Origin: an uncultured delta proteobacterium
GTDB lineage: Bacteria; Desulfobacterota; Binatia; UBA9968
Length of the DNA stretch: 64,000 nucleotides
Reading direction: 5' to 3'
Assembly (NCBI GenBank): GCA_963727625.1
Contig: CAVSHR010000012.1
Span: 320,001-384,000 of the forward strand
The translations under genes and the position numbers were made by a program. Every line of letters starts with the position of its first letter. Position 1 is the first letter of the stretch. The notes under the pieces were generated by a model. The model made no database searches and was not told the DNA's origin. It worked only from the letters and a program-made list of their open reading frames with translations. Below are positions 3,349 through 63,375 of the stretch, piece after piece.

Positions 3349-3395
3349 TTCGCATTCTTGAAAAAATTTTCCCTCTGTTCTGTCAAATTTGCGAT
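3349..3395. promoter_or_regulatory. Paired palindromic activator boxes (putative bEBP UAS)
   Basis: TTCGCA-TTCT-TGAAAA (3349) and CTGTCA-AATT-TGCGAT (3380), 31 bp apart. Confidence 0.7.
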
Positions 3396-3465
3396 CTAAG
3401 ATTTTCGAGTTTCAGAACTTCAAACAAAAGCGCTGCTGTCAACGGCGTCGAATGACCGCGTCGGC

Positions 3466-3480
3466 TGGCACCTATCTTGC
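3466..3480 (+). promoter_or_regulatory. sigma54 promoter for the 2-oxoacid oxidoreductase operon
   Basis: TGGCAC-CTATC-TTGC, perfect consensus. Confidence 0.85.
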
Positions 3481-3511
3481 GCTTTCTATTAACCAGAGCA
3501 TGGAGATTGCC

Positions 3512-4408
3512 ATGATTGAAGTTCGCTTTCACGGCCGCGGTGGCCAGGGCGCAAAGCTCGCGAGCCGGATATTCGGGTGCGCCGGGTTTTTGTCCGGACT
3601 TCAAGCTCAAGACTTCGCCTTGTTCGGCGCCGAGCGCAGGGGCGCGCCGGTGGTTTCTTTCACCCGCTTGAGCGACGAAGCGATCGATCAGCGCGGCTAC
3701 GTGGAACATCCGGATCTGGTCGTCGTCATGGACGATTCGCTGCTGAAGGAAGCGCCTGGACAAGTCTTTCATGGCGTTGACGATAAAACACCGCTCTTCG
3801 TGAACGCCGATCCTGATCGCTTCGCAATTGATCTGAAGGATTTGCCTGCGGCAAAGTTCCTGTTCGTCGACCTGTCGGCGATTGCACGGAAACTGATCGG
3901 CGCTCCTGTGGTAAGCGCCGCCGCGGCCGCCATCGCCGCCAAATGCGTTCCGTCCATCAGTCTGTCGGCGCTCGAAAATGCCGTTAAAATCGAACTCGGC
4001 GAATTTAGGCTGGCGCCGAACTTGGTCGAAAGGAACCTGGCCGCGGCCGGGGCAGCGTACCAACGGACGCCGGCCGTCGATCTCGTTCCGGTAGTCAAAG
4101 CCGAGAGAGTTTCCGCGCCGTCATGGCAGGCCGTTCCCTATCTCGGCACTTCTCAGTTTGCCGGTCCGACGATCCGCCACCAGGGCAGCGCGGCCTTGCG
4201 CCAAACCGGCAACTGGCGCATCGAACAGCCGGTCATCGAGCTGGATAAATGCAAGCGCTGCTTTCTTTGCTACCTCTACTGTCCGGAAGCGGCGATGCGC
4301 TTGGACGCGGAGAATTTTCCCCATGTCGACTACGATCACTGCAAGGGCTGCATGATTTGCTACGAAGAGTGCCCGACCGATGCGATCAGCCGGAGGTTGG
4401 AGGTATAA
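3512..4408 (+). CDS. porC: 2-oxoacid:ferredoxin oxidoreductase gamma-delta fusion subunit
   Basis: MIEVRFHGRGGQG..FGAERRGAP (gamma) plus CKRCFLCYLYCP and CKGCMICYEECP 2x[4Fe-4S] (delta); GGAG RBS supports start 3512. Confidence 0.9.
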   Translation: MIEVRFHGRGGQGAKLASRIFGCAGFLSGLQAQDFALFGAERRGAPVVSFTRLSDEAIDQRGYVEHPDLVVVMDDSLLKEAPGQVFHGVDDKTPLFVNADPDRFAIDLKDLPAAKFLFVDLSAIARKLIGAPVVSAAAAAIAAKCVPSISLSALENAVKIELGEFRLAPNLVERNLAAAGAAYQRTPAVDLVPVVKAERVSAPSWQAVPYLGTSQFAGPTIRHQGSAALRQTGNWRIEQPVIELDKCKRCFLCYLYCPEAAMRLDAENFPHVDYDHCKGCMICYEECPTDAISRRLEV

Positions 4409-4450
4409 GGTGTGCCGGGAAAAGTATTGCGACGGTGCCAAAAATCGCGG

Positions 4451-4470
4451 GGGCGCAATTCATTGCGCCC
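4451..4470. repeat. REP-like palindrome
   Basis: GGGCGCAAT-TC-ATTGCGCCC perfect inverted repeat in the intergenic gap. Confidence 0.6.
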
Positions 4471-4480
4471 GAGGTGTGAC

Positions 4481-6731: not shown

Positions 6732-6793
6732 AAGTTTATTCTTTGTTGAGGTTCATGGGCGACAATGTTCGGTTGAATGCAAACGACTAGGAG

Positions 6794-7900: not shown

Positions 7901-8057
7901 TCGTACCTATGCATTGCTGTTCAATGGATTGGCTCCGACACCCCACGCTAACCATTCGATGGCGGACATCCCTCGCTGATTCCGGGCCTGCAACCTGAAA
8001 AGCACGTGCCGCGCGCGCCAACTCAAACAATCCTTCCGGCACGATTTCATGGCTTCC

Positions 8058-9008
8058 TCATTTATTTTTCACCTGGCCAATTTTTTTAATGCCCGATAGT
8101 AAGCGATCCGGTGATCCCCAGTCGCTCCAAGTCACATCGCGCACGGGCAGAACCAAAAGCGCTTGCCGATATTCGAAAGGAAGAAATTCGAGAACCGATG
8201 TGGAAAAATTGATCGGACTTAACTCATGATAAACCGCCTCGAGCGCGCGCTGTTCGTCAGGCGTGCCGATAGCCTTCAGGAAAGGTTCAAAAGAGCGGTA
8301 AATTTTCGGCGTGGCACTCCGAAATACATTTATCAGGGTCGTAGCCTTGAAGACCATCACCAATGTGTTCCACAAGGCCCCTATGTTAATGATTTTCTTT
8401 GCCGCCTCTACCGCGGGTTTTTCCACAAACAACTCGACCTCTCTAGCAGAAGCGCCGTCGAGCCATTTGATTTCCTCTCCTGGAACAATGTAACCATATT
8501 CCGGTTCGGGCGCGTGGGGCTCTACTCCTAAAAGTACAATCCGCGAGCTGTCCTGCTCCACGACTCGAAATGCTCGGTCCACATGCCTAATAAAAAGGTC
8601 CTCTTCCAGGATGAAATGATCCGACGGAAAAACTGCCACAATCGCATCCGGATGGCGTCGGAGAAGATAGATCAAGGGGAGAAGAAGTCCGGGCACAGTA
8701 TCTTTGTTCTCGGGTTGAATCACCACGGTTTCCGGAGGTCTGGATCGGATTTGGCGGCCAACTTCACTAAATTGTAAATGTTCCTTGGCGATGACGACGT
8801 AAAGCCGCTTGGGTGGAATTAGCTTTTCTGCGCGGTGAAAAGTATGCTCCAGCATGGACCGTTTGCCAACGAAGTTGACGTATTGTTTGGGGAAGTCATG
8901 GCCCCGAAAGCGATACACAAAATCCCGCATTCGCGTACCGTTACCGGCCGATAAGACAATCCCGCAGCGAATTCCAGAAGGAGCTGGATCGTCCAATGTC
9001 GGACTCAT
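8058..9008 (-). CDS. Sugar-phosphate nucleotidyltransferase (mannose-1-P guanylyltransferase-like, no isomerase domain)
   Basis: IVLSAGNGTR..PKQY..QPENKDT..PSDHFI..YGYI..FVEKP..WN..WSDWGS; start could be 9110. Confidence 0.85.
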   Translation of the reverse strand: MSPTLDDPAPSGIRCGIVLSAGNGTRMRDFVYRFRGHDFPKQYVNFVGKRSMLEHTFHRAEKLIPPKRLYVVIAKEHLQFSEVGRQIRSRPPETVVIQPENKDTVPGLLLPLIYLLRRHPDAIVAVFPSDHFILEEDLFIRHVDRAFRVVEQDSSRIVLLGVEPHAPEPEYGYIVPGEEIKWLDGASAREVELFVEKPAVEAAKKIINIGALWNTLVMVFKATTLINVFRSATPKIYRSFEPFLKAIGTPDEQRALEAVYHELSPINFSTSVLEFLPFEYRQALLVLPVRDVTWSDWGSPDRLLSGIKKIGQVKNK

Positions 9009-9232
9009 GATGACCGCCTCTAATTTGACTCTTTTGCTAGCGTGCCAAAGCTTGGGCCGATATTTCTCTAAATTCGCCGTGCTTCTTCCCCAGCCTCGGC
9101 ATAACTTCATTAATCCAATTCGGATGCGCCTATCCGTTACCTGGGTTACGGACGCGTTCTTTTTTATTGACTATGAAAGTTATTTTAAAGGCGGCGAAAT
9201 TCTGCATCGTGCGTTTCACAAGGGGGGGAACA

Positions 9233-9943
9233 ATGAAAAAGTCTGTCATCCAGACTTCAGAGCTTCGTAAAATGGGGACTTTCGAGGGGTTCTCTGAAAA
9301 GTGCCTCGATCGCTTAGCCAGCAATATGGAAGAACTGCGTGTGAGTCGGGGCGAAGCGATCTATCGTCCGGGACAACCGGCTAAGTACCTCTATTGTGTG
9401 CTGGAAGGCGTCATTGGTCTCTCACTACTCGGCAGTGAGGATCGCTTTGTGCGCCTGATGTTATCCGGGAGAGGAGACTTTTTTGGAATCGACGCGCTTA
9501 TGCGCAGATGGCGACGGGTGAGCGTGGCCACAGCCATGCAAGATTCACGTGTGGCAAGGATCAAGCCCCGCATTTTTGTCACCGAGGTTTGTGGCGTGCC
9601 TTGGGAGCCTTTTGACGGGTTAATTCACACGCTAATAACACCGGTTTTAAAGGTGTCCTTACAGCGGGCAGTGTTTTTAGTGGAAAATCTACCTGACAGG
9701 TTAGCCCTAGCCCTCTGGGAGTATTCACACGGTTTCGATATTAGACGATCGAAAGAGCTTTTGCCGACTGCCCTCACTCACGACGAACTTGCTGCAATGG
9801 TAGGCGCCTCCAGGCCGCGGGTGTCACTTGCGTTGAAGCAACTACAACGTCAAGGTCTCCTCATCGGAAGTCGGAAGCAAATTCGAATTCAAGAGAAACC
9901 TCTACGTGCTTACCTCGAGGACCGATATGGGTTCGCCTTTTAG
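9233..9943 (+). CDS. Crp/Fnr family transcriptional regulator
   Basis: cNMP-binding fold (IYRPGQPA.YLYCVLEG..GDFFG) plus HTH LTHDELAAMVGASRPRVS. Confidence 0.85.
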   Translation: MKKSVIQTSELRKMGTFEGFSEKCLDRLASNMEELRVSRGEAIYRPGQPAKYLYCVLEGVIGLSLLGSEDRFVRLMLSGRGDFFGIDALMRRWRRVSVATAMQDSRVARIKPRIFVTEVCGVPWEPFDGLIHTLITPVLKVSLQRAVFLVENLPDRLALALWEYSHGFDIRRSKELLPTALTHDELAAMVGASRPRVSLALKQLQRQGLLIGSRKQIRIQEKPLRAYLEDRYGFAF

Positions 9944-10038
9944 GCAAAGTTAGGAATTTCGCGCGTGCGCGGAAATCCGAGATTGGGTTTCGCGCCGCTC
10001 GTCCCAAGAGGATAGGCTCGGAGAAAGTACCTCGTTCA

Positions 10039-10266
10039 AAGACCAAGCTCGTGCCTCAATGCGCCAACGCCGGCGGCGTGATCTGCGCCTCGGTGGAATA
10101 CCATGGCGGCACCCAAGCTCAAGCCTTGCAAACCATCGAAGAAAAGATCCGCGCGAATACCGAAGAGGTGCTCGCCAACGCAAATAAGAGCGGTTCGCTA
10201 CCGCGCCAAGCCGCGGTCGAGTTGGCGGAAACGCGCGTAAGAAAAGCGCTGGCGTACCGAAAGTGA
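10039..10266 (+). pseudogene. Remnant 3' end of the Glu/Leu/Phe/Val dehydrogenase
   Basis: KTKLVPQCAN joined directly to AGGVICAS...ALAYRK*; 75 nt missing relative to the intact gene. Confidence 0.88.
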
Positions 10267-10283
10267 TGCTCCGATCCAATGTT

Positions 10284-15873: not shown

Positions 15874-15902
15874 TGCCCGCTCCTTCTCAGCCCCTGACTT
15901 CC

Positions 15903-15917
15903 GCAAGAAATGCGCCA
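15903..15917 (-). promoter_or_regulatory. sigma54 promoter for acsA-pdh-ACP
   Basis: TGGCGC-ATTTC-TTGC. Confidence 0.82.
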
Positions 15918-15956: not shown

Positions 15957-16003
15957 TTTTCAAAGCTGCGAAGAGACTCCCGAGTTTTTATCAAGCTTGA
16001 AGA
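15957..16003. promoter_or_regulatory. Paired palindromic activator boxes
   Basis: TTTTCA-AAGC-TGCGAA (15957) and TTATCA-AGCT-TGAAGA (15988), 31 bp apart. Confidence 0.7.
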
Positions 16004-16073
16004 ACCTGCTTCGCGAGGTCGCGATAAACCTGCGCACTTTCGGTGTTACCCAAGCCGTTGCTCCGCGGCGCCG

Positions 16074-16088
16074 CGGCATTGAAATTGC
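16074..16088 (+). promoter_or_regulatory. sigma54 promoter for DUF2267-dnaJ-mla
   Basis: CGGCAT-TGAAA-TTGC. Confidence 0.78.
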
Positions 16089-16147
16089 TCAGTTCAGATG
16101 GTTAAGGGAGCCCATCGAAAACGAATCGGCTGCGAGGAGGAATCGCC

Positions 16148-22863: not shown

Positions 22864-23100
22864 GCTCGATTACGCGGACGATACCACTCCAAAGACGGTC
22901 GATGGTCGCCGAGCAAACCTCCCTCGCCTTTAAACCGGCGGGAGCGGTATCGATGATTCCGACGCCGCGACCGATTAGAAAGCAATCGGCGTGCCTAAGA
23001 ATTTCCATTCAATTCACGCGGCAGCCGTGGATTTTGCTCATCCGTGCGAAGTTGAGTTTTGCTCACTATCATTTCTGACAAGACCCGGCACATCTACCGG

Positions 23101-23782: not shown

Positions 23783-23911
23783 CGACTTGGCTGTGCCAAT
23801 TTTTGGGCTTGGTTTTTAGCCATCCGCAAGCGCAGTGCCAACGAGATTGCGGATCTAAACGCTAAAATAAAAGATTTTTTCTCTGAGTTTCGAATAAAAG
23901 CCTGCTGTGAA

Positions 23912-23958
23912 TTTTCAAATTTGCGATTATCCCCAAATCTTCTTGTCATAGCCGCAAA
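23912..23958. promoter_or_regulatory. Paired palindromic activator boxes
   Basis: TTTTCA-AATT-TGCGAT (23912) and TTGTCA-TAGC-CGCAAA (23943), 31 bp apart. Confidence 0.68.
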
Positions 23959-24177: not shown

Positions 24178-24192
24178 TGGCACAACAATTGC
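24178..24192 (+). promoter_or_regulatory. sigma54 promoter
   Basis: TGGCAC-AACAA-TTGC, perfect consensus. Confidence 0.8.
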
Positions 24193-24203
24193 CAATGCGT
24201 TAA

Positions 24204-26201: not shown

Positions 26202-26555
26202 ATGAAATTTGAACTTCGGCCGATTGGATGGATACGCAAGACCAAAACCAAGACTCGGATCGTGCTGTACAAAAAATTTCAGGCCGGACTCGCGGGCATC
26301 GAGTCGAAGTCAGAGATCTGGGTGCTTTGGTGGTTTAACCGCAACGATACGCCGGAACGACGCGCCACCCTCAAGGTCCATCCGAAGGGCGACCCGGCAA
26401 ATCCCTTGACCGGCGTGTTTGCGACGCGGTCGCCGATGCGGCCCAATCTGATTGCGCTGAGCCGCTGCAAGATTCTCTCCGTGAAGAAAAATATTATCGA
26501 GATCGACTCGATCGATGCTTTTCCCGGCACCCCGGTGTTGGATCTAAAACCGTAG
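26202..26555 (+). CDS. tsaA: TsaA/TrmO (YaeB)-like SAM-binding protein, minimal domain
   Basis: PIG..GVFATRSPMRPNLIALS..DAFPGTPVLDLKP. Confidence 0.85.
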   Translation: MKFELRPIGWIRKTKTKTRIVLYKKFQAGLAGIESKSEIWVLWWFNRNDTPERRATLKVHPKGDPANPLTGVFATRSPMRPNLIALSRCKILSVKKNIIEIDSIDAFPGTPVLDLKP

Positions 26556-28734: not shown

Positions 28735-28810
28735 TTGATTTACTTTCTTATGGCTCGACTTTGTCGCGCTCCCGCGCAGATTCAAGAACAGCTGACGAAA
28801 TAAAAGCTAC

Positions 28811-28825
28811 GCAGGAGCCATGCCA
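28811..28825 (-). promoter_or_regulatory. sigma54 promoter for USP
   Basis: TGGCAT-GGCTC-CTGC. Confidence 0.7.
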
Positions 28826-29020
28826 ACAAGGACGGTACGCGAGGTCAGGAATCGCTGCGACTTCGAGTTTGTCTATTCTCACTCATAAAAAAATAGCGCG
28901 TAAAAATCTCGCAAACGGGAAAGCGTCAACTCTAATACGATAACATCGCACTCCATTGGCCGAGATAGAGACGATCTGGTATGTGGATGACTGATCTGAA
29001 ACCAACAAGGGGTAAAAACG

Positions 29021-31992: not shown

Positions 31993-32478
31993 CTAAATAT
32001 GCCCGCGGGCGTCTTGCAATTTCTTGTACCAATCGGGGACCGTGAATTCATCGACCCGGTAGGTCGGGCGGTAGCCTTTGATATCGAGGATCGGTGTGCC
32101 GTCGAAGTAGTCGAGCCCGCTGACTTTGAGAAAGCGGCCCTGCCGGCCGAGCAGGCGAACCAACGTGAGCCCGATCGGATTGGGCCGCGTCGGCGAATCC
32201 AGGGCGAAGACGCCGAGCAGCGGCAGTTCCTCGAGTTTGAACCCTCTTTTGACTAGCCTTCGCGGTTTCACCTGCAGCGGGCCGATCTGATCGGCTCTGA
32301 GCCGGTCAAAATATCCAAGCACAAAGAGATGCGAATAACCGTCGAGCCCCTCCAGTGCGGGCTCAAACTCGGCATAGATTTCCAATTCTCCAACCAGATC
32401 CTTGCCCTCACCGCGAACCTCGCCTTCGGTAAATTGCGCTTTGACCCGCCCAATGGGCTTGAAAACAATTTCAGCCAT
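31993..32478 (-). CDS. Second TsaA/TrmO-like protein
   Basis: FKPIG..GVFALDSPTRPNPIGLT..LDYFDGTPILDIK; RBS GGAGG. Confidence 0.85.
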   Translation of the reverse strand: MAEIVFKPIGRVKAQFTEGEVRGEGKDLVGELEIYAEFEPALEGLDGYSHLFVLGYFDRLRADQIGPLQVKPRRLVKRGFKLEELPLLGVFALDSPTRPNPIGLTLVRLLGRQGRFLKVSGLDYFDGTPILDIKGYRPTYRVDEFTVPDWYKKLQDARGHI

Positions 32479-32683
32479 AAAAATATCTTCCCTCCGCCAG
32501 AATTGAGATCCATTTGCCGCCGGCCTTGCCACGAAGTGCCCGGAGCACAGCCGAAGCCCGAGATTCCCTGACGTATGCGAGGATGATCACCATTTCTTTC
32601 ACGATGCTCTGCGGATTATCACGCGGACGCTCGCGCGGCGCGCCACGTCCACACTGGGTCTAGGCGCGGTTGTCTGGTATCGG

Positions 32684-34311: not shown

Positions 34312-34337
34312 GATAACCCTCCGATCGAGCGAAGGCC

Positions 34338-34352
34338 GCAAATAACATGCCG
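34338..34352 (-). promoter_or_regulatory. sigma54 promoter for boxB-like/DPSL
   Basis: CGGCAT-GTTAT-TTGC. Confidence 0.78.
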
Positions 34353-34391: not shown

Positions 34392-34438
34392 TTCGCAAAG
34401 TTGCAAATACAGCGCCTCTCTTCTGTCAGATATGCCGA
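34392..34438. promoter_or_regulatory. Paired palindromic activator boxes
   Basis: TTCGCA-AAGT-TGCAAA (34392) and CTGTCA-GATA-TGCCGA (34423), 31 bp apart. Confidence 0.7.
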
Positions 34439-35871: not shown

Positions 35872-35919
35872 TTGCCAGCATTGCTAGGACATAAGTTGAT
35901 ATTTTTTCAAATCTGATAA
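35872..35919. promoter_or_regulatory. Paired palindromic activator boxes (weaker)
   Basis: TTGCCA-GCAT-TGCTAG (35872) and TTTTCA-AATC-TGATAA (35904), 32 bp apart. Confidence 0.5.
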
Positions 35920-36034: not shown

Positions 36035-36049
36035 TGGCATAGAAAATGC
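36035..36049 (+). promoter_or_regulatory. sigma54 promoter
   Basis: TGGCAT-AGAAA-ATGC. Confidence 0.75.
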
Positions 36050-36094
36050 TCATTAATCTAAACAACTGCAGATCGCAAACGTCGAGAGGTCCGT

Positions 36095-38363: not shown

Positions 38364-38433
38364 GCGAAATTTCCCCTGGATTGAAGTGTGCATAAGACTT
38401 TCGTCCAATAAGAACTTACTTACTTTGGAGGCC

Positions 38434-38448
38434 GCAAGAGATATGCCA
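38434..38448 (-). promoter_or_regulatory. sigma54 promoter
   Basis: TGGCAT-ATCTC-TTGC. Confidence 0.8.
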
Positions 38449-38488: not shown

Positions 38489-38536
38489 TTCTCAAATTCG
38501 ATAAAGGAACCGAGCCGAGGATCTCAGCACAGCGAA
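38489..38536. promoter_or_regulatory. Paired palindromic activator boxes
   Basis: TTCTCA-AATT-CGATAA (38489) and ATCTCA-GCAC-AGCGAA (38521), 32 bp apart. Confidence 0.55.
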
Positions 38537-39506: not shown

Positions 39507-39553
39507 TTGCCAAACCTGAAAAGAAAAGCACGGAAAATTCTCGCAACCGCAAA
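39507..39553. promoter_or_regulatory. Paired palindromic activator boxes
   Basis: TTGCCA-AACC-TGAAAA (39507) and TTCTCG-CAAC-CGCAAA (39538), 31 bp apart. Confidence 0.55.
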
Positions 39554-39607: not shown

Positions 39608-39622
39608 CGGCAAGCTTGTTGC
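39608..39622 (+). promoter_or_regulatory. sigma54 promoter
   Basis: CGGCAA-GCTTG-TTGC. Confidence 0.62.
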
Positions 39623-39713
39623 AACACTTGTTATTTAACCAATCAAGCGCTTCGCTTCCAGGCCAAACGATCATAAAGCGCCAACTGCATTTATAATAAA
39701 AGGAGCGCTTCCC

Positions 39714-40754
39714 ATGAACGATCGAACGACTCCGAGCCAGGCTGACCTTTGGGGGCTTGTATTAGCGGGCGGCGAAGGCAAGCGTCTGCAAGAATTCGTA
39801 CACCAACTGCGCGGCGAGTCTTTGCCCAAGCAATACGTCAATTTCGTCGGTACCCGCTCCATGCTTCAACACACCTTGGATCGTGCCGAGCGCTTGATCC
39901 CTCGGCGAAAGATTTTGACCGTCGTTACCGAACACCATCTTTGGGCCCCCACGGTGCGCCGGCAATTGTCGGATCGCGCGCCGGCCACGGTGATCGTTCA
40001 ACCGGAAAACAAAGACACCGGACCGGGAATACTTCTTCCGCTCACGTACCTTTACAAGGGCTGTCCCGACGCCACCATCGCTCTTTTCCCATCGGACCAT
40101 TTTATTCTCGAGGAAGATCGCTTCCTTGACCATGTCCGCCTGGCAGCCCGCGCCGTGCATCATGATTCCTCCCAGATCCTGCTTCTGGCTATAGAAGCTC
40201 AGCGGGCGGAAACAGAATACGGCTACGTGGTTGCCGCCGGTTACAACGGCCATATCGATTTGTGCGGATGCCGAAAGGCAGCCCATTTCGTAGAGAAGCC
40301 GGATCCAGCGGAGGCACGTTTGCTGGTTGCTGCGGGCGCGCTATGGAACACCATGATCATGGTGTTCAAAGTCGAAACGCTATTGCGCCACGTCCAAACA
40401 CTCTATCCCGAAGTCGCGAGTCTCTTCCGCGCGCTTTCGGACTTGATCGGCACAGCAGCGGAAGACCGCAAGATACAAGAAATTTATCGCCATCTACGAC
40501 CGCTAAACTTTTCCAAGGATATTCTCGAAAGCATCGCAGCTCGCTTCCCGGCATCGATTTCGGTGCTGCCCGTTTTGGGGGTGACCTGGAGCGACTGGGG
40601 ATCGCCGCAGCGGCTATTGGAAAGCAAAAAATCCCTCGATCTGCGCCCCCATGTGCCATCGCCTACGCTACAACCGCCGACGGTCACGCCCGGGTCCCAA
40701 TCAGGTCGGCCGGCCGCTCCGGACGTTGCGGTCCGCCAGCGCCGATTAGGATAA
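39714..40754 (+). CDS. Sugar-phosphate nucleotidyltransferase (second GMP-like paralog)
   Basis: VLAGGEGKRL..PKQYVNFVG..QPENKDTGPG..PSDHFI..FVEKP..WSDWGSP. Confidence 0.87.
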   Translation: MNDRTTPSQADLWGLVLAGGEGKRLQEFVHQLRGESLPKQYVNFVGTRSMLQHTLDRAERLIPRRKILTVVTEHHLWAPTVRRQLSDRAPATVIVQPENKDTGPGILLPLTYLYKGCPDATIALFPSDHFILEEDRFLDHVRLAARAVHHDSSQILLLAIEAQRAETEYGYVVAAGYNGHIDLCGCRKAAHFVEKPDPAEARLLVAAGALWNTMIMVFKVETLLRHVQTLYPEVASLFRALSDLIGTAAEDRKIQEIYRHLRPLNFSKDILESIAARFPASISVLPVLGVTWSDWGSPQRLLESKKSLDLRPHVPSPTLQPPTVTPGSQSGRPAAPDVAVRQRRLG

Positions 40755-51001: not shown

Positions 51002-51032
51002 GGCAAATACTCCCCCGTGATTACCTCAGTTG

Positions 51033-51047
51033 GCAATAATTGTGCCG
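51033..51047 (-). promoter_or_regulatory. sigma54 promoter for lipoprotein-dnaK-efflux unit
   Basis: CGGCAC-AATTA-TTGC. Confidence 0.8.
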
Positions 51048-51177: not shown

Positions 51178-51224
51178 TTCGCAAGATTGAAAACTTCCTG
51201 CTTGCAAGTTTCCAGTTCTGCAAA
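51178..51224. promoter_or_regulatory. Paired palindromic activator boxes
   Basis: TTCGCA-AGAT-TGAAAA (51178) and TTTCCA-GTTC-TGCAAA (51209), 31 bp apart. Confidence 0.7.
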
Positions 51225-51240
51225 CAGAGCGACGATTACA

Positions 51241-51255
51241 TGGTACGCCAATTGC
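51241..51255 (+). promoter_or_regulatory. sigma54 promoter for cytochrome c
   Basis: TGGTAC-GCCAA-TTGC. Confidence 0.72.
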
Positions 51256-51326
51256 TCCGAACATGAGCGGTTGCTCAATGGAGCCGATTGGAAACTAGAT
51301 GAGGGTAACCATCGTAGGGAGGTCTT

Positions 51327-51824: not shown

Positions 51825-53033
51825 TTAACAGATCGGATATTTTCCTTGCGCCAGTTCGGTGCAGAACCGCGCCATTCCATCCAACTCCTCTCTCAGAATC
51901 CGGCGCACCGGCTCGGCGACACCGGTGAGCTTCGATCCGGCTTTGAGCTTCACCTGCACGGCGGCAACCTGCGGCTCGTTGATCGGCATGCCGATCCGGC
52001 TGCAGAGCCAGACGATGACTTGATCTAAACCCGAGATTTCTCGATAGATGCGCTCGGCCAGCACGTGCGTCAAGACGCTGTAAATCTTGCCCACGTGGCT
52101 AACGGGATTTTTTCCCGCGGCGGCTTCCGAGCCGCGCGGCCGGTTGAGCGCGATGATGCCGTTGACCTGATTGCCCCGTCCCACTTCGCCGGAATCGGCG
52201 TCTTCCGCGGAAGTTCCCAAGACCGAAAGATACATGCCGGCGAGCCCGCGGCCCGGCCGATCCAGCGTGTTTACGCCGGCGACGACTTCGCGGAGCGCGA
52301 CTAGACGCCGGCTCAAGTGCGCGATCAGCGCCTGGCGCATCGCTTCTTTCTGGAGAAAATAGCCGACCTCGCTTTCGACGTAGCGGTCCAACAATGGAAT
52401 CGCCACCGTGAGATCGAGCCGGCTGCCATGGCGCACTCCCATAACCTTTACATCCTGACCGCTTACCGGAAATCGCCGCTTGAACTCGCCGCCGTTCAAG
52501 AATTTTTCCGCCTCCAAAACCGTCTGTTCGGTTTCAGTGAGAGGGGCATAGCCGACTGCCGCCGAAGTATCGTTCGCCAAGGAGACAGTCGAGTTCTCGC
52601 TGAATATGCCGGTCAACTCCTCTGACCCGCCTTTGAGCTCCATTTGGAAAACCAGATGTCGCTCCGGATCGATCTCGGGGAGATTTTCTCGAAACCAGCT
52701 CTTGGCGGTTTCTATGGCGAGGGCGCCGACGTCGAACGCTTGCACGAGCGTCGCCCGGTCGCCGATCACCAGGCGCATCGGCTCGATGATCCGGCCGCCG
52801 CCGAGACGGTGCTCCGCCTGTCCGGCAACCAGCAAACCTTTGTCGCAATTGTGATGAAGAATCCGGCCGAACTGTTCCCGGTACGCTTTGGCTAAAGCTT
52901 GCGAGATGCGCTCCATTACGAGATCGCAAATCGTATCGGGATGGCCCAACCCCTTGCGCTCGACAATCTCGATTTGATTTTGTTCGGGAGTTGGCGCGAC
53001 GGACTGTTCTACGTGGATGGCGGTGACGGGCAT
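51825..53033 (-). CDS. mat: Archaeal-type methionine adenosyltransferase
   Basis: EIVERKGLGHPDTICD, HHNCDK, ANDTS, DVKVMG, DSGEVGRGN, EAAAGKNPVSHVGKIY. Confidence 0.9.
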   Translation of the reverse strand: MPVTAIHVEQSVAPTPEQNQIEIVERKGLGHPDTICDLVMERISQALAKAYREQFGRILHHNCDKGLLVAGQAEHRLGGGRIIEPMRLVIGDRATLVQAFDVGALAIETAKSWFRENLPEIDPERHLVFQMELKGGSEELTGIFSENSTVSLANDTSAAVGYAPLTETEQTVLEAEKFLNGGEFKRRFPVSGQDVKVMGVRHGSRLDLTVAIPLLDRYVESEVGYFLQKEAMRQALIAHLSRRLVALREVVAGVNTLDRPGRGLAGMYLSVLGTSAEDADSGEVGRGNQVNGIIALNRPRGSEAAAGKNPVSHVGKIYSVLTHVLAERIYREISGLDQVIVWLCSRIGMPINEPQVAAVQVKLKAGSKLTGVAEPVRRILREELDGMARFCTELAQGKYPIC

Positions 53034-53091
53034 CTCGACCTCTGCTTGCACAATCAATGAGTCAAACCAGCAACTCGGATGAGATGAATGA

Positions 53092-53106
53092 GCAAGGGTC
53101 ATACCG
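53092..53106 (-). promoter_or_regulatory. sigma54 promoter for mat
   Basis: CGGTAT-GACCC-TTGC. Confidence 0.65.
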
Positions 53107-53155
53107 TGGTAACCGGCTCTTGAGCGCGGCAAATCGTTCGAATAACGAATTTTCC

Positions 53156-53202
53156 ATCGCAATTTTAAAAATTTACCGGATGAATTTTCGCGGCACTGCG
53201 AA
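53156..53202. promoter_or_regulatory. Paired palindromic activator boxes
   Basis: ATCGCA-ATTT-TAAAAA (53156) and TTCGCG-GCAC-TGCGAA (53187), 31 bp apart. Confidence 0.68.
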
Positions 53203-53263: not shown

Positions 53264-53278
53264 TGGCACAGCCATTGC
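53264..53278 (+). promoter_or_regulatory. sigma54 promoter for archease-rtcB
   Basis: TGGCAC-AGCCA-TTGC, perfect consensus. Confidence 0.85.
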
Positions 53279-53310
53279 GCGAAGAAAGTCCTTATCGATA
53301 GGCTTTAACC

Positions 53311-53733
53311 ATGGAGGAGGCGCGCTGGGAACATCGACCCCATGGCGCCGATGTCGGCGTCTGCGGCATCGGCCGCTCCAAGGCCGAAGCGTTCGAACAG
53401 GCGGCTGTGGCATTGACAGCCATCGTTGCCGATCCCGAGTCGGTTGCCGCTAAAGATGCCGTCGAGGTAAGCTGTGACGCACCCGATGATGAGCTGCTGC
53501 TGGTCGAGTGGCTCAATGTTTTGATCTACGAGATGGCCACGCGAAAGATGCTCTTCGCGCGCTTTGCGGTTCATATCGATGATCATCAATTGGCGGGCAA
53601 AGCCTGGGGCGAAGCGATCGACGTCGACCGCCATGATCTAGGGGTCGAGGTCAAGGGCGCGACTTGCACCGACTTAAAGGTGACTCGAGAAGAGTCCGGG
53701 CTATGGCGCGCCCAATGCGTGGTCGATGTCTGA
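53311..53733 (+). CDS. Archease
   Basis: H.ADVG..LLVEWLN..EVKGAT..VVDV; adjacent to rtcB. Confidence 0.92.
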   Translation: MEEARWEHRPHGADVGVCGIGRSKAEAFEQAAVALTAIVADPESVAAKDAVEVSCDAPDDELLLVEWLNVLIYEMATRKMLFARFAVHIDDHQLAGKAWGEAIDVDRHDLGVEVKGATCTDLKVTREESGLWRAQCVVDV

Positions 53734-53742
53734 GGAGCTGTT

Positions 53743-55173
53743 ATGGAGTTGACGCGATTGCGACGGAAGGCGGAAATCCAGTGGTGGATCGCGCCCCACG
53801 GCAAGATGCGTGTCCCCGCGATTATCTTCGCGAGCGAAAATTTAATGCGCGACATGGACGAAAAAGTTTACGAACAGGTCACCAACGTCGCCACCTTGCC
53901 GGGGATCGTCAAAGCCTCCTATGCCATGCCGGATGCTCACTGGGGTTACGGCTTTCCGATCGGCGGCGTGGCCGCTTTCGACCCGGAAAGGGGCGGGGTG
54001 ATTTCCGCCGGCGGCGTCGGCTTCGACATCTCCTGCGGCGTGCGCACGCTGCATACCGGGCTCATCCTCGAAGAGATCGAGCCGGTCAAGGAGCGACTGG
54101 CCGATGTGCTTTTTCGAGAAATTCCCGCCGGCGTCGGCAGCACCGGCAAGCTAAGCCTCAATCAGAAAGAAATGGACGCCATGCTGCTCGGCGGCGCGCG
54201 TTGGGCGGTCGAGCGCGGCTACGGCACCAAAACGGACCTCGATCGCGTCGAAGAGGCCGGGTCCATCTCCGACGCGCAACCTGACCAGGTTTCCGACCGC
54301 GCCAAGAAACGCCAGCGCGATGAGATGGGCACGCTGGGCTCGGGCAACCACTATTTGGAAGTCCAGCAGGTCGCCAAGATTTGCGATGCCGCGATCGCCG
54401 CGGCCTTTGGCGTACGCCAGGGCGACATTGTGCTCAGCATCCACTGCGGCTCGCGCGGCCTCGGCCACCAGATCGGCACCGAATTTCTCAGCCGCATGGC
54501 AGCCACCGCGGCGCAATCCGGCATCGACCTTCCCGACCGGGAATTGGCCTGCGCGCCGATCCATTCGCCCGTCGGACAAGCCTACCTCGGCGCCATGCGC
54601 GCGGCAACCAACTGTGCGCTGGCCAATCGGCAGATCATCACCCACCTGGCGCGCCGAGCGTTTAATCATATCTTTCCCAAAGCGGAGCTGCCGCTGCTCT
54701 ATGACGTCTCCCACAACACCTGTAAGATCGAAGAGCATGTCGTCGACGGCAAAACGATCCGGTTATTCGTGCATCGAAAAGGCGCCACCCGCGCTTTCGG
54801 TCCGGGCCATCCGACGGTTCCCGGATCGCTCAGCGAAGCCGGCCAGCCGGTCTTGATCGGCGGCACCATGGGCACCGCTTCTTATATTCTGGCCGGGACC
54901 CGCCAGGGAATGGAGTTGGCGTTCGGCTCCGCCTGTCACGGCGCGGGGCGCAGCATGAGCCGGCATCAAGCGCTGCGTCAATGGCGCGGCCGGGAGGTCA
55001 TCGAGAAGCTCGCATTCCGCGGCGTGCTTATCCGCAGCCGTTCCATGCGCGGGATCGCCGAGGAGGCGCCGGGAGCGTATAAGGACGTTACTGAAGTCGT
55101 CGATGCCGCCGATCGCGCCGGCTTGGCCCGCACCGTCGCTCGGCTTGAACCGGTGATCTGTGTTAAGGGATAA
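53743..55173 (+). CDS. rtcB: RtcB family RNA ligase
   Basis: MPDAHWGYGFPIGGV, GFDISCG, GSGNHYLE, HCGSRG, HN, HRKGAT, HGAGR, EEAPGAYK. Confidence 0.96.
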   Translation: MELTRLRRKAEIQWWIAPHGKMRVPAIIFASENLMRDMDEKVYEQVTNVATLPGIVKASYAMPDAHWGYGFPIGGVAAFDPERGGVISAGGVGFDISCGVRTLHTGLILEEIEPVKERLADVLFREIPAGVGSTGKLSLNQKEMDAMLLGGARWAVERGYGTKTDLDRVEEAGSISDAQPDQVSDRAKKRQRDEMGTLGSGNHYLEVQQVAKICDAAIAAAFGVRQGDIVLSIHCGSRGLGHQIGTEFLSRMAATAAQSGIDLPDRELACAPIHSPVGQAYLGAMRAATNCALANRQIITHLARRAFNHIFPKAELPLLYDVSHNTCKIEEHVVDGKTIRLFVHRKGATRAFGPGHPTVPGSLSEAGQPVLIGGTMGTASYILAGTRQGMELAFGSACHGAGRSMSRHQALRQWRGREVIEKLAFRGVLIRSRSMRGIAEEAPGAYKDVTEVVDAADRAGLARTVARLEPVICVKG

Positions 55174-55214
55174 TCAAACGGCATCCTGATTGAAATGTTG
55201 GGAACGCCGGCGAT

Positions 55215-55238
55215 TTGAACGGCTTGAACGATTTGAAC
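55215..55238. repeat. 9-bp tandem repeats (TTGAACG-type)
   Basis: TTGAACGGC TTGAACGAT TTGAAC. Confidence 0.55.
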
Positions 55239-55257
55239 AACCAGCGCGGAGGCGATC

Positions 55258-56043
55258 ATGTTCCAGCTACTCGGCGAGTTTGTCGGTCTGCTCGGCACCG
55301 TCGTGGTTATCGCGGCGATAATTCTGATCAGCGGCATCAAAATCCTCCGCGAATATGAGCGCGGCGTCATCTTTCGCCTCGGGCGGCTGGTCGCGCCGCG
55401 CGGCCCCGGCATCATCTACGTCATTCCACTGATCGAAAAAATCGTCCGGGTGCAACTGCGCACCGTGACCATGGACGTGCCGCCGCAGGATGTCATTACC
55501 AAAGACAACGTTTCGGTCAAGGTCAACGCGGTGGTTTACTTTCGCGTCATGGACGCGAACCTGGCGATTCTCGAGGTCGAGAACTATCTTTTCGCCACCG
55601 CACAGCTCGCCCAGGTGACGTTGCGCAGCGTTTGCGGCCAGGCCGAGCTCGACGAGCTGCTCGCGGAAAGAGAAAAACTCAACATCAAGCTGCAGGAGAT
55701 CCTCGACGCCGCAACCGACCCTTGGGGAATCAAGGTCGTGGTCGTCGAGCTCAAGGATATCGATCTACCCCAGGAGATGCGCCGCGCCATGGCCAAGCAG
55801 GCCGAAGCCGAACGGGAGCGGCGCGCCAAGATCATTCATGCCGAAGGCGAGTTTCAAGCCTCGCAAAAGCTGGCCGAAGCGGCGGAGATCATCGCCAAGC
55901 AGCCCAACGCCATGCACCTGCGCTTCCTGCAAAGCCTGGTCGAGGTGTCGTCGGAAAAAAACCACACCGTCGTGGTCCCGATTCCCGTCGATGTCGTCAC
56001 CCGAGCGCTTGCGATGTTAAAGCCGGAAGAGCCCACCGGGTAG
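55258..56043 (+). CDS. Stomatin/slipin (SPFH) protein
   Basis: [40 protein letters not shown]. Confidence 0.95.
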
Positions 56044-56412: not shown

Positions 56413-56459
56413 CTTTCAATCGTGACAACCGTGTCGAGGTTATTTCCGGCTTATGCGAA
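56413..56459. promoter_or_regulatory. Paired palindromic activator boxes
   Basis: CTTTCA-ATCG-TGACAA (56413) and TTCCGG-CTTA-TGCGAA (56444), 31 bp apart. Confidence 0.62.
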
Positions 56460-56529: not shown

Positions 56530-56544
56530 TGGCGCACCGATTGC
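56530..56544 (+). promoter_or_regulatory. sigma54 promoter for the CoA-activase gene
   Basis: TGGCGC-ACCGA-TTGC. Confidence 0.82.
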
Positions 56545-56591
56545 GTCACTGGTAACTGGCGTATCTGTCAGAAGGGCTCCTTGGTGCAGCG

Positions 56592-60734: not shown

Positions 60735-60781
60735 AAGCCGGCGGTAAATGATGCGCTCACGCTTATCACCGGGGAGGGAGA

Positions 60782-60952: not shown

Positions 60953-60993
60953 ACCGCGCGACAGAATCCGCGGCGCTGCGCAAACGACGGCGC

Positions 60994-61641
60994 TTATCCC
61001 ACCGCCGAGACTTTCGACTTATCCCGTTTAAGGATTTCGACCACGTCTTCATCGGCAACCTGGCCGAACTCGTCAAAAAATTGGCCCACGGCGTAGAATT
61101 CACCCGGGACATCCAAACAGACCACCTCATCGCACTCGCGCGACATCGCTTGAGCCGCTTCCGGGGAAGCCACGGCGACGGCGGCAATCAGCTTTTTGGG
61201 CCCCTGGGCGCGCACCGCGCGCAACGCCGCCCTCATCGTTGATCCGGTGGCGATGCCGTCGTCAACCACGATGACCATGCGGTCTCGCGGATCGATCGGC
61301 GCCTGATGCGGCGTGTATACGGCTCGGCGGCGGCGCAGGACCTGCAGTTGGCGTTTTTTTTCCGCTTGCACATACTCGAAGTCGAGATCCAAAGCCCACT
61401 CGGAAACAAACGCTTTGCCGGTTTCATCGATGGCGCCGATGGCGAGCTCAGGCGACTCGGGATGGCTGAGCTTGTGCACGAGCACGACATCCAGCTCGCC
61501 GCCGAGGGCACCGGCGATGATCTTGGCCATCGGCACTGCGCCGCGCGGTATGCCGAGCACTAAAGGATTCTTGTTTTTGTACTGAGGACTCAAGCGCTCG
61601 ACCAAAAGCGCCGCGGCATGTTCTCGATTTCTAAATCGCAT
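60994..61641 (-). CDS. Phosphoribosyltransferase family protein (Rv0571c-like)
   Basis: F.NR..A..L, GIPRGAVP, VIVVDDGIATGSTM, FYAVGQFF..F.QV.D. Confidence 0.9.
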   Translation of the reverse strand: MRFRNREHAAALLVERLSPQYKNKNPLVLGIPRGAVPMAKIIAGALGGELDVVLVHKLSHPESPELAIGAIDETGKAFVSEWALDLDFEYVQAEKKRQLQVLRRRRAVYTPHQAPIDPRDRMVIVVDDGIATGSTMRAALRAVRAQGPKKLIAAVAVASPEAAQAMSRECDEVVCLDVPGEFYAVGQFFDEFGQVADEDVVEILKRDKSKVSAVG

Positions 61642-61677
61642 GGCTCACCTCGCTTAGCTCCCGGAGTCTGCATGGTG

Positions 61678-63063
61678 TCAAACCCTCGTCTCCGGTGATT
61701 TTCGATTGCCCGGTTGTCTTTGCCGCGCGTCGACTTCTTTGGCCAGAAGTTGAATCGCTTCGGCAACGCGCACGGGATAATCCGGCGCAGGCTCGAGCTT
61801 TTTCAACCCATCGGGCAGTTTCTTGAATTGCTCCAGTGCCCACGCCCGCGATTGCTTCAGGGACACGGGCGCTGTAAGCCGCCGTCCCTGCTGCATGACC
61901 GGCGCGATGAGCGCGGCCCCGCTGTTTTCGTCGCCTTCCAAGGTCAAGAGATCTCCAGCCATCAGTCCTGCGGAATCGTAGGTCCGAAACACCTGCTTTC
62001 TGCCCGGCCACAGCACCTTGCCTTCCGAGCGCTTGCGGCGGGCACGGCCGGCATACTCGACGAGCTTGTAGGCGCAGTCCAAGTAGGGCGCATCGGCGGA
62101 AGTATCCATATGCGTGCCGATGCCGAAGCCGTCGATGGGGGCGCCTTTCTCGCGTAGCTGTTGGAGCAGATATTCATCGACGCTGCCGCTGGCAAAGATG
62201 GTGACCTCATTGAGGCCGCCGGCGTCAAGAATGCGCCGCACTTTGAATGCATGATCGGCCAGATCGCCGCTGTCCAGCCGCACGCCTTTGATTTTAATCC
62301 CGTCGTGGCCAAGCTTGGGCGCCAGCTCGACGACCTTTTGGGCCGCCGCTTCAGTGTCATAGGTATCGATCAGGAGAATCACATTATTTGGCAGCGCCCG
62401 GGCAAAGTGCTCAAACGCCGCGCTTTCGTCATCGTGTGCCTGCACGAATGAGTGGGCCATCGTGCCAAATACCGGGATGTCGTAGAGCGGCGCCGCCAGC
62501 ACCGTGGCGCTGCCGGCGAAACCGGCCAAATAACTCGCTCGCGCCGCCAGCAGTCCGGCTTCGGCCCCATGGGCGCGGCGCAAGCCAAAATCCACCAGCA
62601 GTTTGCCTGGTGCCATCAGCACCGAACGCGCCGCCTTTGAAGCGATCAAGGTTTCAAAATGAAACAAGTTAATCAGCCGGCTTTCCACCAGCTGCGCCTG
62701 GTCGATCGGCGCCGTGACGCGCAGGATCGGTTCGTTGGGGAAAAAAATCGTTCCTTCAGCCATGGCGTGGACATCGCCGGTAAAGCGGAGATTTTTCAGA
62801 TAGCGCACGAACTTTGGATGAAACTCGCCATGCTTGCCGATCCATTCGAGCTCCGCTGCGGTAAAGCGCAGGTTTGCCAAAAACCCGAGCCCCTGTTCAA
62901 GGCCGGCGGCGACGAGAAAATTGCGCGAGCGCGGCAGCTTGCGAACGAAAAATTCAAAAACCGCGGTTTCTTCCATGTGCTGATCGAAGTAGCCCTGGAG
63001 CATCGTGAGCTGGTATAGATCGGTCAGCAGCGCGCTCGATAGAACGTTTCGCTCGATATTCAT
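61678..63063 (-). CDS. pncB: Nicotinate phosphoribosyltransferase
   Basis: LLTDLYQLTM, DFGLRRAHG, GTMAHS, LIDTYDT, VRLDSGD, YKLVEY. Confidence 0.95.
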   Translation of the reverse strand: MNIERNVLSSALLTDLYQLTMLQGYFDQHMEETAVFEFFVRKLPRSRNFLVAAGLEQGLGFLANLRFTAAELEWIGKHGEFHPKFVRYLKNLRFTGDVHAMAEGTIFFPNEPILRVTAPIDQAQLVESRLINLFHFETLIASKAARSVLMAPGKLLVDFGLRRAHGAEAGLLAARASYLAGFAGSATVLAAPLYDIPVFGTMAHSFVQAHDDESAAFEHFARALPNNVILLIDTYDTEAAAQKVVELAPKLGHDGIKIKGVRLDSGDLADHAFKVRRILDAGGLNEVTIFASGSVDEYLLQQLREKGAPIDGFGIGTHMDTSADAPYLDCAYKLVEYAGRARRKRSEGKVLWPGRKQVFRTYDSAGLMAGDLLTLEGDENSGAALIAPVMQQGRRLTAPVSLKQSRAWALEQFKKLPDGLKKLEPAPDYPVRVAEAIQLLAKEVDARQRQPGNRKSPETRV

Positions 63064-63254
63064 TGCGCTTTCCTATGCCTTGAACCGCCTCAGCCCATCC
63101 GGGTCCACCTGCGTCCAAGAGGTCGTCGCGCGCCTCGCTTTCGGCCCGCCGCAGCGCCGAGAATGCAAGCTGGTCATGCCAGCGCACCCAACACCTGCCA
63201 TCGTTGAGGACCAACAGCGAAAAATCGACACTCGGCGATTACGCTCTTGGAGTG

Positions 63255-63269
63255 GCAAACGGCATGCCA
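63255..63269 (-). promoter_or_regulatory. sigma54 promoter for pncB-PRT
   Basis: TGGCAT-GCCGT-TTGC. Confidence 0.78.
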
Positions 63270-63328
63270 TGAAACGGCTTAAGTTCAACCTGAAACTTGG
63301 CGCTAAATTCGCTTCTCGGCGGCGCAGA

Positions 63329-63375
63329 TTCCCGCGCGCGCAAAATTCGCTCCAATAAATTTTCATCGTTGCAAG
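63329..63375. promoter_or_regulatory. Paired palindromic activator boxes (weaker)
   Basis: TTCCCG-CGCG-CGCAAA (63329) and TTTTCA-TCGT-TGCAAG (63360), 31 bp apart. Confidence 0.5.

Follow-up and report, generated by a model that had tools for sequence, protein, structure and literature searches.

A stretch of 64,000 nucleotides from an uncultured soil bacterium of the Candidatus Binatia (hereinafter the window; contig C12, positions 320001-384000, of a 6.62-Mb genome in 15 contigs, 56.7% G+C and 98% complete) carries a repeated pair of 16-base palindromes, which is a genuine enhancer before dozens of sigma-54 promoters. Dyad structure, spacing, promoter linkage, helical phasing and conservation agree in supporting the pairs as upstream activating sequences (UAS) of a sigma-54 activator. 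From the sequence, we consider it quite probable that they are the UAS of a single large sigma-54 regulon controlled by P0001, an NtrC-type response regulator whose gene enters the window at its right end, and by an adjacent FixL-like kinase. The system most likely amounts to an oxygen-sensing two-component system that would switch on many stress and dormancy-type genes.

A palindrome pair about three helical turns apart

An initial annotation of the window had listed twelve box pairs, picked by eye, with the consensus TTYKCA-N4-TGMRAA, and all twelve are present where it placed them. A de novo search by palindrome-constrained expectation maximization (EM) in 13 sigma-54-bearing intergenic regions (4717 bp), to which no box positions were supplied, recovered TTC(G/T)CA-N4-TG(C/A)(G/A)AA at the same coordinates. 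At a width of 16, the search converged on TTCGCAA-NN-TTGCGAA and found 22 of the 24 listed boxes; box 56444 was recovered at width 18 only and box 28908 at width 14 only (z 0.71). A thirteenth pair, absent from the earlier list, came out at 23035/23066, as did third boxes at 3402 and 16010. Counting k-mers enriched in the promoter regions relative to the window was uninformative, with A+T-rich words dominating.

Oriented counts from 17 promoter-linked pairs agree with the annotated consensus. The two halves of the dyad are equally conserved (T2 in 17/17, A15 in 16-17/17, C5 in 13-14/17 and G12 in 14-15/17), and A6 and T11 are kept in 13-16 of the 17. A box spans 16 bp as a dyad whose half-sites are centred 10 bp from each other, and the two boxes of a pair start 31 bp apart (range 30-32), or about three helical turns, leaving 15 nt between them. 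Every pair combines one strong and one weaker box, the lowest-scoring boxes (28908, 56444, 63329, 34423 and 35872) reaching 4.6-7.2 bits.

Single boxes are degenerate, as the initial annotation had conceded in resting its argument on the spacing. With a matrix trained on the window sites only, so that the genome outside the window is untrained, a threshold of at least 7 bits gives 7757 matches in the genome, and the 31-bp spacing stands out nonetheless. Among window boxes of at least 8 bits, seven pairs are 31 bp apart and two are 32 bp apart, with no more than three at any other distance from 8 to 80 bp. Outside the window, boxes of at least 9 bits form 14 pairs at 31 bp and 0-5 pairs at each other distance from 10 to 90 bp. 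The literal pattern (the annotated IUPAC box twice, with at most three mismatches) has 17 matches genome-wide at 31 bp, compared with 0, 1, 2, 0 and 0 at 27, 29, 33, 35 and 37 bp. Its five matches in the window compare with a mean of 0.00 in 100 dinucleotide-preserving shuffles, and the reversed pattern gives 0-1 matches per genome in sets of 31 and 81 genomes. The degeneracy of single boxes and their thousands of genomic matches could be taken to mean that the pairs are chance matches selected by eye, or else fragments of a dispersed repeat. We give this reading practically no weight: it is already refuted by the shuffles, the other spacings, the reversed pattern and the flanks, which are not conserved while the dyad positions are. 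A dispersed repeat, and likewise IHF, was rejected as an explanation because conservation is limited to the dyad positions.

The pairs are tied to sigma-54 promoters. We screened for a GG-N10-GC element with at most two mismatches to TGGCAC-N5-TTGCW, located 20-140 nt from a pair and pointing outward. Such an element accompanies 21 of the 34 genome-wide 31-bp pairs; other spacings from 14 to 69 bp yield 4-19 pairs each, 0-3 of them with a promoter. Outside the window, the count is 14 of 26 pairs at 31 bp and 0-2 at other spacings. Starting from the promoters, 17 of the 91 genomic matches to the strictest sigma-54 pattern (TGGCA[CT]-N5-TTGC) have a pair within 200 nt, and the control spacings of 24-26 and 36-38 bp give none at the score applied.

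The gaps between box and promoter are not evenly distributed. Among 34 gaps, two are 29 nt, thirteen 38-43 nt, three 50 nt, three 54 nt, three 59-61 nt, four 70-71 nt and one 79 nt, with outlying values of 16, 94, 115, 130 and 133 nt. A period scan gives a best period of 10.5 bp (R 0.54, p 0.0002 after correction for the scan), calculated against a uniform null and drawing much of its signal from the 13 of 34 gaps at 38-43 nt. The gaps outside the window alone have a best period of 10.3 bp (p 0.006). The helical phasing to the -24 element that had been proposed is thereby recovered, the offsets then reported being our measured gaps plus 1. As a separate observation, the hsp20 upstream regions of this genome and of its relatives (window ~3310-3348; loci L108-L116 and L120) repeatedly show an A/T-rich, GAAAWT-like patch that separates the proximal box from the promoter and precedes TGGCA by about 22-27 nt; it may represent an intrinsic bend or a site of IHF type.

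The scan of related genomes that the initial annotation had suggested finds the paired pattern in 44 of the 49 sampled genomes of the family, with up to 24 matches per genome. All 31 genomes of the host's own genus carry it (1-24 matches each), as do two of four genomes of a third family (1-2 matches each); none of 27 genomes of a sister family does. Upstream of hsp20, nine of the ten relatives' regions with enough DNA have both boxes at fixed positions with differing flanks. In these nine, the proximal box TTTTTCAA-N3-TG(C/A)GAAA lies 38-41 nt from TGGCA(C/T)-N5-TTGCG, and the distal box (A/C)TCGCA-N4-TGCGA(G/T/C) lies 31 bp further upstream (32 bp in one genome). An eleventh region, ended by a contig edge, has the proximal box only. 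One of the ten regions comes from G005, a genome flagged as unpublished, as are G085 and G094; all three belong to the comparison of 59 relatives described below.

The arrangement extends to another genus. On an 88-kb contig of G046 (65% G+C), boxes of at least 7 bits form ten pairs at 30-32 bp and, among all other spacings from 14 to 70 bp, a single pair at 44 bp. When each box is required to reach at least 6 bits and the sum at least 16, twelve pairs fall at 30-32 bp, ten of them with a sigma-54 promoter. The genes downstream belong to the same families as here: CBS proteins, a CBS-CoA-binding protein with OsmC, a TrmO-like protein, HPF-CSD, a tRNA-editing domain, DUF2934 with Hsp20 and a Lon-like protease, NAPRT with a phosphoribosyltransferase, DnaK-DnaJ, GroES-GroEL and a BON protein. 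The gene order of activator and NAPRT with a pair between them, as at 63329/63360, is also kept in another genus.

The candidate activator, its kinase and competing regulators

P0001 is encoded on the minus strand; the 3' part of the gene occupies 63550-64000 of the window, and the gene continues to contig position 384896. The 449-residue protein has REC, Sigma54_activat (E 1.5e-69) and HTH_8 domains, and a GSFTGA loop can be read in its translation. Searched with the AAA+ domain alone, the genome yields 27 sigma-54 activator genes; a figure of 55 from our first search was discarded, the remaining matches being to receiver domains. P0001 is the sole such gene on the 662-kb contig C12. An activator 87% identical to it was found in one metagenome-assembled genome labelled 'Candidatus Binatia bacterium'. 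From its domain make-up and genomic setting, P0001 is the likely binder of the boxes.

P0001 has a box pair in its own leader as well, in a region just outside the right edge of the window (C12:384897-385086). The pair ends 18 nt before the start codon and is preceded, at a distance of about 46 nt, by a sigma-54-like element, TGGCTTCGCAATTGCT. The leader pair is present in 10/10 orthologous loci of the genus, and the upstream element is detected in eight of the ten; a paralogue of 60% identity has neither. Five additional genomes, including three from other genera, have a pair 26-34 nt from the start of the orthologue.

The gene directly upstream of P0001 encodes an 871-residue kinase with GAF, three PAS, HisKA and HATPase domains. 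A match to this kinase flanks the activator in six of ten genus loci and in G046, and at least two of the non-matching loci end at a contig edge. Residues 519-645 (127 residues) align with the haem-PAS domain of Bradyrhizobium FixL (1dp6; E 5e-28) and also match that of E. coli DosP (E ~1e-10). In the FixL alignment, the histidine of RHD corresponds to that of EHD, and the arginines of SRY and GRI to those of ARY and IRT. Following the FixL literature, we take the EHD histidine to be the proximal haem ligand and the ARY and RIR arginines to be pocket residues. This PAS domain is 69-73% identical in eight distinct relatives' loci, including one from another genus, with EHD, ARY and RIR invariant; over the longer kinase match identity is 47-70%, and no part of the kinase is conserved better than this PAS domain in the matching loci. 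We infer that the last PAS domain is a FixL-like haem oxygen sensor and, by analogy, that low oxygen would switch the kinase on.

The most serious competitor of P0001 is a protein of 334 residues with AAA+ and HTH_8 domains and no receiver domain, encoded on the minus strand of contig C5 (224728-225732; L099:3728-4732). Over the AAA+ and HTH regions it shares 56% identity with P0001; among 29 ranked matches its C-terminal 60 residues are closest to those of P0001, with the helix SLSSLYRK corresponding to SLSTLYRK. Its operon also contains a gene resembling rubrerythrin, one of unknown family, an AAA_33 kinase-like gene and a tandem Usp gene, and is divergent from PFK-GAPDH-CBS-PaaA-like genes. 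The surroundings of the paralogue form a second island, of Usp, CBS, PFK and GAPDH genes, and three box pairs occur there within 16 kb. A P0001 orthologue was not detected in G007, G012 and G015; these three genomes retain 15 pairs, 5 of them at most 9 kb from the paralogue. Because the paralogue has the DNA-binding end most similar to that of P0001 and adjoins residual pairs in orthologue-less genomes, both proteins probably read the boxes. A stronger version, in which the boxes are read mainly or only by the paralogue, PspF-like and controlled by a partner protein, with P0001 binding elsewhere, we regard as unlikely. The leader pair of P0001 is kept throughout the genus loci and in other genera, and median pair numbers in genomes of the genus, listed by hand, are about 11 with a P0001 orthologue compared with 2 without. 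In addition, 18 of the 26 pair sites with a promoter lie on contig C12, at about 205-402 kb (the others are on C3, C4 and C5), where P0001 is the only activator gene, and the promoter of the paralogue's own operon has no detectable pair.

Less probable still is that the dyads are sites of some other modulator, either a different activator or the Crp/Fnr-type protein encoded at 9167-9943 of the window, with the true enhancer elsewhere. A Crp-like gene is indeed present, the genome has some 27 sigma-54 activator genes to choose from, and a 5-N4-5 dyad geometry resembles that of Fnr-type sites. Against this, sigma-54 promoters require an activator, and the EM search gave no other motif shared by the same 13 regions. 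The fixed 31-bp pairing and the 10.5-bp phasing are the classic arrangement of activator sites, and the Crp-like gene lies in a stretch of low third-position G+C. The initial annotation had described the pairs as the binding site of one master activator: UAS of a sigma-54 activator fit every computational test, and it is the word 'one' that the receiver-less paralogue leaves unsettled.

The preferred reading, a single regulon under P0001 and its kinase, has several observations against it. At the P0001 gene itself, the pair lies downstream of the conserved sigma-54-like promoter, a position that could point to repression rather than activation. Gaps of 43, 54, 94 and 16 nt are off phase, and several sigma-54 promoters of the second island lack a pair, with none found at C5 224476, 227033 and 230249 even at low thresholds. 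One observation in favour of P0001 as the binder is itself limited: across 59 relatives, the number of pairs rises with the identity of the best full-length P0001 relative (Spearman 0.72; medians of 10 pairs at 77% identity or above, 4 at 67-73%, 2 at 59-65% and 1 where none was found), a correlation confounded by kinship, by genome completeness and by drift of a pattern defined on this genome. Genomes without a detected P0001 orthologue keep 0-7 pairs, some beside the receiver-less paralogue. As for the kinase, the residue equivalent to the second histidine of FixL is not invariant, and haem binding and the direction of the response are assigned by analogy only.

A proposed circuit and its relation to known systems

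In the circuit that we propose, low oxygen or a related redox signal would activate the kinase, which would phosphorylate P0001. Two P0001 dimers would occupy the strong and the weak dyad, on the same face of the DNA and three turns apart, and nucleate an active ring. With box centres near -73 and -104, or farther off by one to four turns, the ring would touch sigma-54 polymerase through a short loop, which would be functional on the right helix face only, and a single pair would often fire two divergent promoters. The pair of P0001 itself, in the transcribed leader, might serve activation from downstream or act as a brake, and the receiver-less paralogue would probably read the same boxes.

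The layout recalls that of NtrC at the enteric glnAp2 promoter, where two dyads about three turns apart lie upstream of a sigma-54 promoter and the activator oligomer works in a face-dependent manner. Paired dyads three turns apart, the sigma-54 promoter and the helix-face arrangement are common to both. The site sequence differs, as the initial annotation had pointed out: the consensus here is not that of the enteric NtrC site. The pairs also lie nearer to the promoter here (centres at about -73 and -104, calculated from a 39-nt gap), and the genes concern stress and dormancy rather than nitrogen assimilation. The kinase resembles FixL in that a PAS domain adjoins the phospho-acceptor domain and the putative proximal histidine is kept. 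It departs from the FixL-FixJ system in its partner, a sigma-54 activator instead of FixJ, and in having an additional GAF and two more PAS domains.

The closest studied system is NmpRSTU of Myxococcus xanthus. NmpR is NtrC-like and acts at sigma-54 promoters through two GCGCA-N5-TGCGC dyads, preferably 14-15 nt apart (PMC11841059). Its regulon comprises 7 promoters and 23 genes, among them its own operon, whose first gene encodes a CBS protein, and genes for Usp, for a P-type ATPase together with cbb3 oxidase, and for HemN together with hemerythrin; hypoxia induces it through the haem protoglobin kinase NmpU, which feeds the hybrid kinase NmpS (PMC11841059). The design, which the initial annotation had called unrecognised, is therefore not without precedent, NmpR using two dyads at this very separation for a hypoxia regulon. 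The two systems have in common an NtrC-type regulator at sigma-54 promoters that regulates its own operon, a spacer of 14-15 nt there and 15 nt here, a GCA/TGC half-site core, genes for a CBS protein, Usp, a P-type ATPase and hemerythrin, and a haem sensor responding to hypoxia, the last being inferred in our case. Compared with GCGCA-N5-TGCGC, the site TTCGCA-N4-TGCGAA has one base fewer between its halves, and a single GAF-PAS3-HisKA-HATPase kinase stands in place of the protoglobin kinase and hybrid-kinase relay. The predicted set here is also larger, at roughly 30 promoters or above, and chaperones, HPF, NAPRT and PFOR are among its products. No match to the protoglobin domain PF11563 was found in this genome at its 98% completeness. 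Four myxobacterial loci contained no paired NmpR-type sites, with a lone GCGCA-N5-TGCGC match in L028.

In gene content the predicted regulon resembles that of the DosRST system. DosR itself is a NarL/LuxR-type regulator that acts at sigma-70-type promoters through another site, whereas the regulator here is NtrC-type, and the likeness is one of gene content and logic, that is, of convergence and not of regulator ancestry. Rv0573c encodes an NAPRT (pncB2). Genes of the DosR or hypoxia response named in a review are acr/hspX, the Usp gene Rv2005c, ctpF, nrdZ, Rv0573c, pfkB, trxB1, Rv2629 and a 2-oxoglutarate oxidoreductase (PMC8044303). The shared elements are a haem-based kinase, Usp, a small heat-shock protein, a P-type ATPase, class II ribonucleotide reductase, NAPRT, pfkB, thioredoxin and a 2-oxoacid:ferredoxin oxidoreductase. 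Sigma-54 control of such genes has precedent as well, since a survey reports that predicted sigma-54 promoters are enriched ahead of chaperone genes in Planctomycetota and Bacteroidota and, in Planctomycetia, ahead of Usp genes (PMC12316311).

More broadly, we put forward, tentatively and with slightly less than even confidence, a hypoxia-triggered sigma-54 dormancy programme spanning this Binatia family. In it, a FixL-like kinase would signal to an NtrC-type activator, which would act on the same dyads as the receiver-less paralogue. The programme would take in about a fifth of the strongest sigma-54 promoters, over half of the Usp domains, auxiliary chaperones, a ribosome hibernation factor, NAD salvage, PFOR and RNA repair, and it would be a convergent counterpart of DosR. 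Binatia are widespread in soil, and we know of no cultured member and of no regulation described in them. Our literature searches combining Binatia with sigma-54, and DosR with sigma-54, dormancy and universal stress, found nothing. The proposal offers a complete, testable circuit from DNA alone: a sensor, a regulator and a binding site, together with some 30 promoters and the genes that they serve. It predicts a survival mode of Binatia under oxygen swings in soil, and its defined motif can be used to annotate the regulon across about 20 genera. It would also be a second case, NmpR being the first, in which sigma-54 activators control survival at low oxygen.

Predicted regulon genes and the individual pairs

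With gene families assigned from Pfam matches, the window is a stress island. It holds six Usp genes or fragments and genes for Hsp20, DnaK, DnaJ, a ferritin-like protein and thioredoxin, together with RtcB and archease, NAPRT, a four-gene PFOR/amino-acid dehydrogenase operon, a 2-oxoacid dehydrogenase operon, a Mla-type transporter, a baeRF12/Host_attach protein, DUF2267 and DUF2934. The DnaK of the regulon is a second copy, the better-scoring, canonical DnaK being encoded on contig C3. Outside the window, the genes downstream of pairs encode five Usp; Hsp20 with a Lon-like protease and DksA; a hibernation-factor/cold-shock fusion followed by Usp; a second PFOR with a CBS protein and Usp; three CBS proteins, a P-type ATPase, OsmC, an M50-CBS peptidase and a fatty-acid desaturase; a 2-hydroxyacyl-CoA dehydratase or benzoyl-CoA reductase-like protein; MtrB/PioB with multihaem cytochromes; and a TctABC transporter. 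Genes for hemerythrin, dienelactone hydrolase and class II ribonucleotide reductase lie on the same strand just 3' of the three CBS genes and outside the computed operon chain; we read them as sharing the CBS operon. Of the 32 Usp-domain matches in the genome, 20 fall in the two islands. Judged by the genes at pair positions, the regulon would be a survival or dormancy-type programme.

The first pair, 3349/3380 (31 bp; 3349-3395; 17.8 + 12.7 bits), lies between divergent hsp20-Usp and PFOR operons. On its left, the minus-strand sigma-54 promoter TGGCACACTGATTGCG (3294-3309; gap 39 nt) precedes hsp20 and three Usp genes; on its right, the plus-strand promoter TGGCACCTATCTTGCG (3466-3481; gap 70 nt) precedes the genes for PFOR subunits and a Glu/Leu/Phe/Val dehydrogenase. 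The same arrangement, one pair with two divergent promoters at 39 and 70 nt, recurs at 15957/15988 (31 bp; 15957-16003; 19.8 + 13.3 bits), where a minus-strand promoter (15902-15917) serves the operon for acyl-CoA ligase and 2-oxoacid dehydrogenase E1/E2 and a plus-strand promoter (16074-16089) that for DUF2267, DnaJ, PEMT and Mla-type ABC proteins. Both of these divergent-promoter regions have a third box exactly 22 bp after the second, at 3402-3417 (EM z 0.98) and 16010-16025. No third box of at least 6 bits occurs in the relatives' hsp20 regions; because of this, the role of the box at 3402 is doubtful, and the third box at +22 was dropped as part of the unit.

Two pairs lie close together near 23 kb. 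The pair that the initial annotation had missed, 23035/23066 (31 bp; 23035-23081; 8.9 + 10.2 bits), has the minus-strand promoter AGGCACGCCGATTGCT (22981-22996; gap 38 nt) for a single-domain receiver protein. The other, 23912/23943 (31 bp; 23912-23958; 18.5 + 14.2 bits), has the minus-strand promoter TGGCACTGCGCTTGCG (23825-23840; gap 71 nt), with a small open reading frame (ORF) downstream, and lies 219 nt from a plus-strand sigma-54 promoter (24178-24193) for an unknown 151-residue protein and BrkB. A weak pair at 28876/28908 (32 bp; 28876-28923; 10.2 + 4.6 bits), of which EM at width 16 found 28876 only, is 50 nt from the minus-strand sigma-54-like promoter TGGCATGGCTCCTGCG (28810-28825) of a tandem Usp gene.

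The pair 34392/34423 (31 bp; 34392-34438; 20.0 + 7.0 bits) is followed on the minus strand by promoter CGGCATGTTATTTGCG (34337-34352; gap 39 nt) for PaaA-like, ferritin-like, TrmO-like, MBL, thioredoxin and GATase genes. At 35872/35904 (32 bp; 35872-35919; 7.2 + 18.3 bits), the plus-strand promoter TGGCATAGAAAATGCT (36035-36050) of a gene for an unknown 189-residue protein is 115 nt away, and at 38489/38521 (32 bp; 38489-38536; 17.1 + 10.4 bits) a minus-strand sigma-54 promoter (38433-38448; gap 40 nt) faces the Host_attach/baeRF12 gene region. The pair 39507/39538 (31 bp; 39507-39553; 14.2 + 13.0 bits) has an off-phase gap of 54 nt to the plus-strand sigma-54-like promoter CGGCAAGCTTGTTGCA (39608-39623) for genes encoding an NTP-transferase and DUF2934. 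This NTP-transferase (39714-40754) is the second in the window with the same two Pfam families; the other lies at 8058-10279, together with the Crp/Fnr-type regulator, in a stretch with a third-position G+C of 0.52-0.53 compared with about 0.7 in its neighbours.

Further right, the pair 51178/51209 (31 bp; 51178-51224; 19.5 + 15.4 bits) is 130 nt from a minus-strand sigma-54 promoter (51032-51047) for glycine-zipper, second DnaK and HlyD/MacB/OEP efflux genes. The plus-strand sigma-54-like element TGGTACGCCAATTGCT (51241-51256), only 16 nt from the pair, is a candidate promoter for a c-type cytochrome gene and too near for the usual geometry. The pair 53156/53187 (31 bp; 53156-53202; 12.8 + 15.7 bits) lies between the minus-strand sigma-54-like promoter CGGTATGACCCTTGCT (53091-53106; gap 49 nt) for a S-adenosylmethionine synthetase and a plus-strand sigma-54 promoter (53264-53279; gap 61 nt) for archease, RtcB and a Band-7 protein. 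The synthetase, encoded on the minus strand at 51825-53162, is of the archaeal type in this bacterial genome (PF01941, E 1.8e-145). The archease, RtcB and Band-7 operon (53311-56043) is placed under the enhancer, the usual activator of rtcB being an RtcR-type regulator.

Two more pairs lie towards the right end. That at 56413/56444 (31 bp; 56413-56459; 11.5 + 4.7 bits) is 70 nt from the plus-strand promoter TGGCGCACCGATTGCG (56530-56545) for a 1380-residue BcrAD/BadFG-type CoA-enzyme activase. That at 63329/63360 (31 bp; 63329-63375; 5.6 + 15.2 bits) lies between the 3' end of the activator gene and the NAPRT operon, with the minus-strand promoter TGGCATGCCGTTTGCC (63254-63269; gap 59 nt) for NAPRT and a phosphoribosyltransferase.

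Two further observations concern repeated elements. At C4:108251 and C4:120768, 12.5 kb apart, are look-alike copies of pair and promoter with a 54-nt gap and a TGGCGGG-type -24 element, preceding small ORFs of unknown family and then NfeD or c-type cytochrome genes; they look like a duplicated regulatory module with an off-phase gap. Finally, the island contains two TrmO-N-domain genes (window 26202-26555 and 31993-32532), and a third is found under a box pair in G046.

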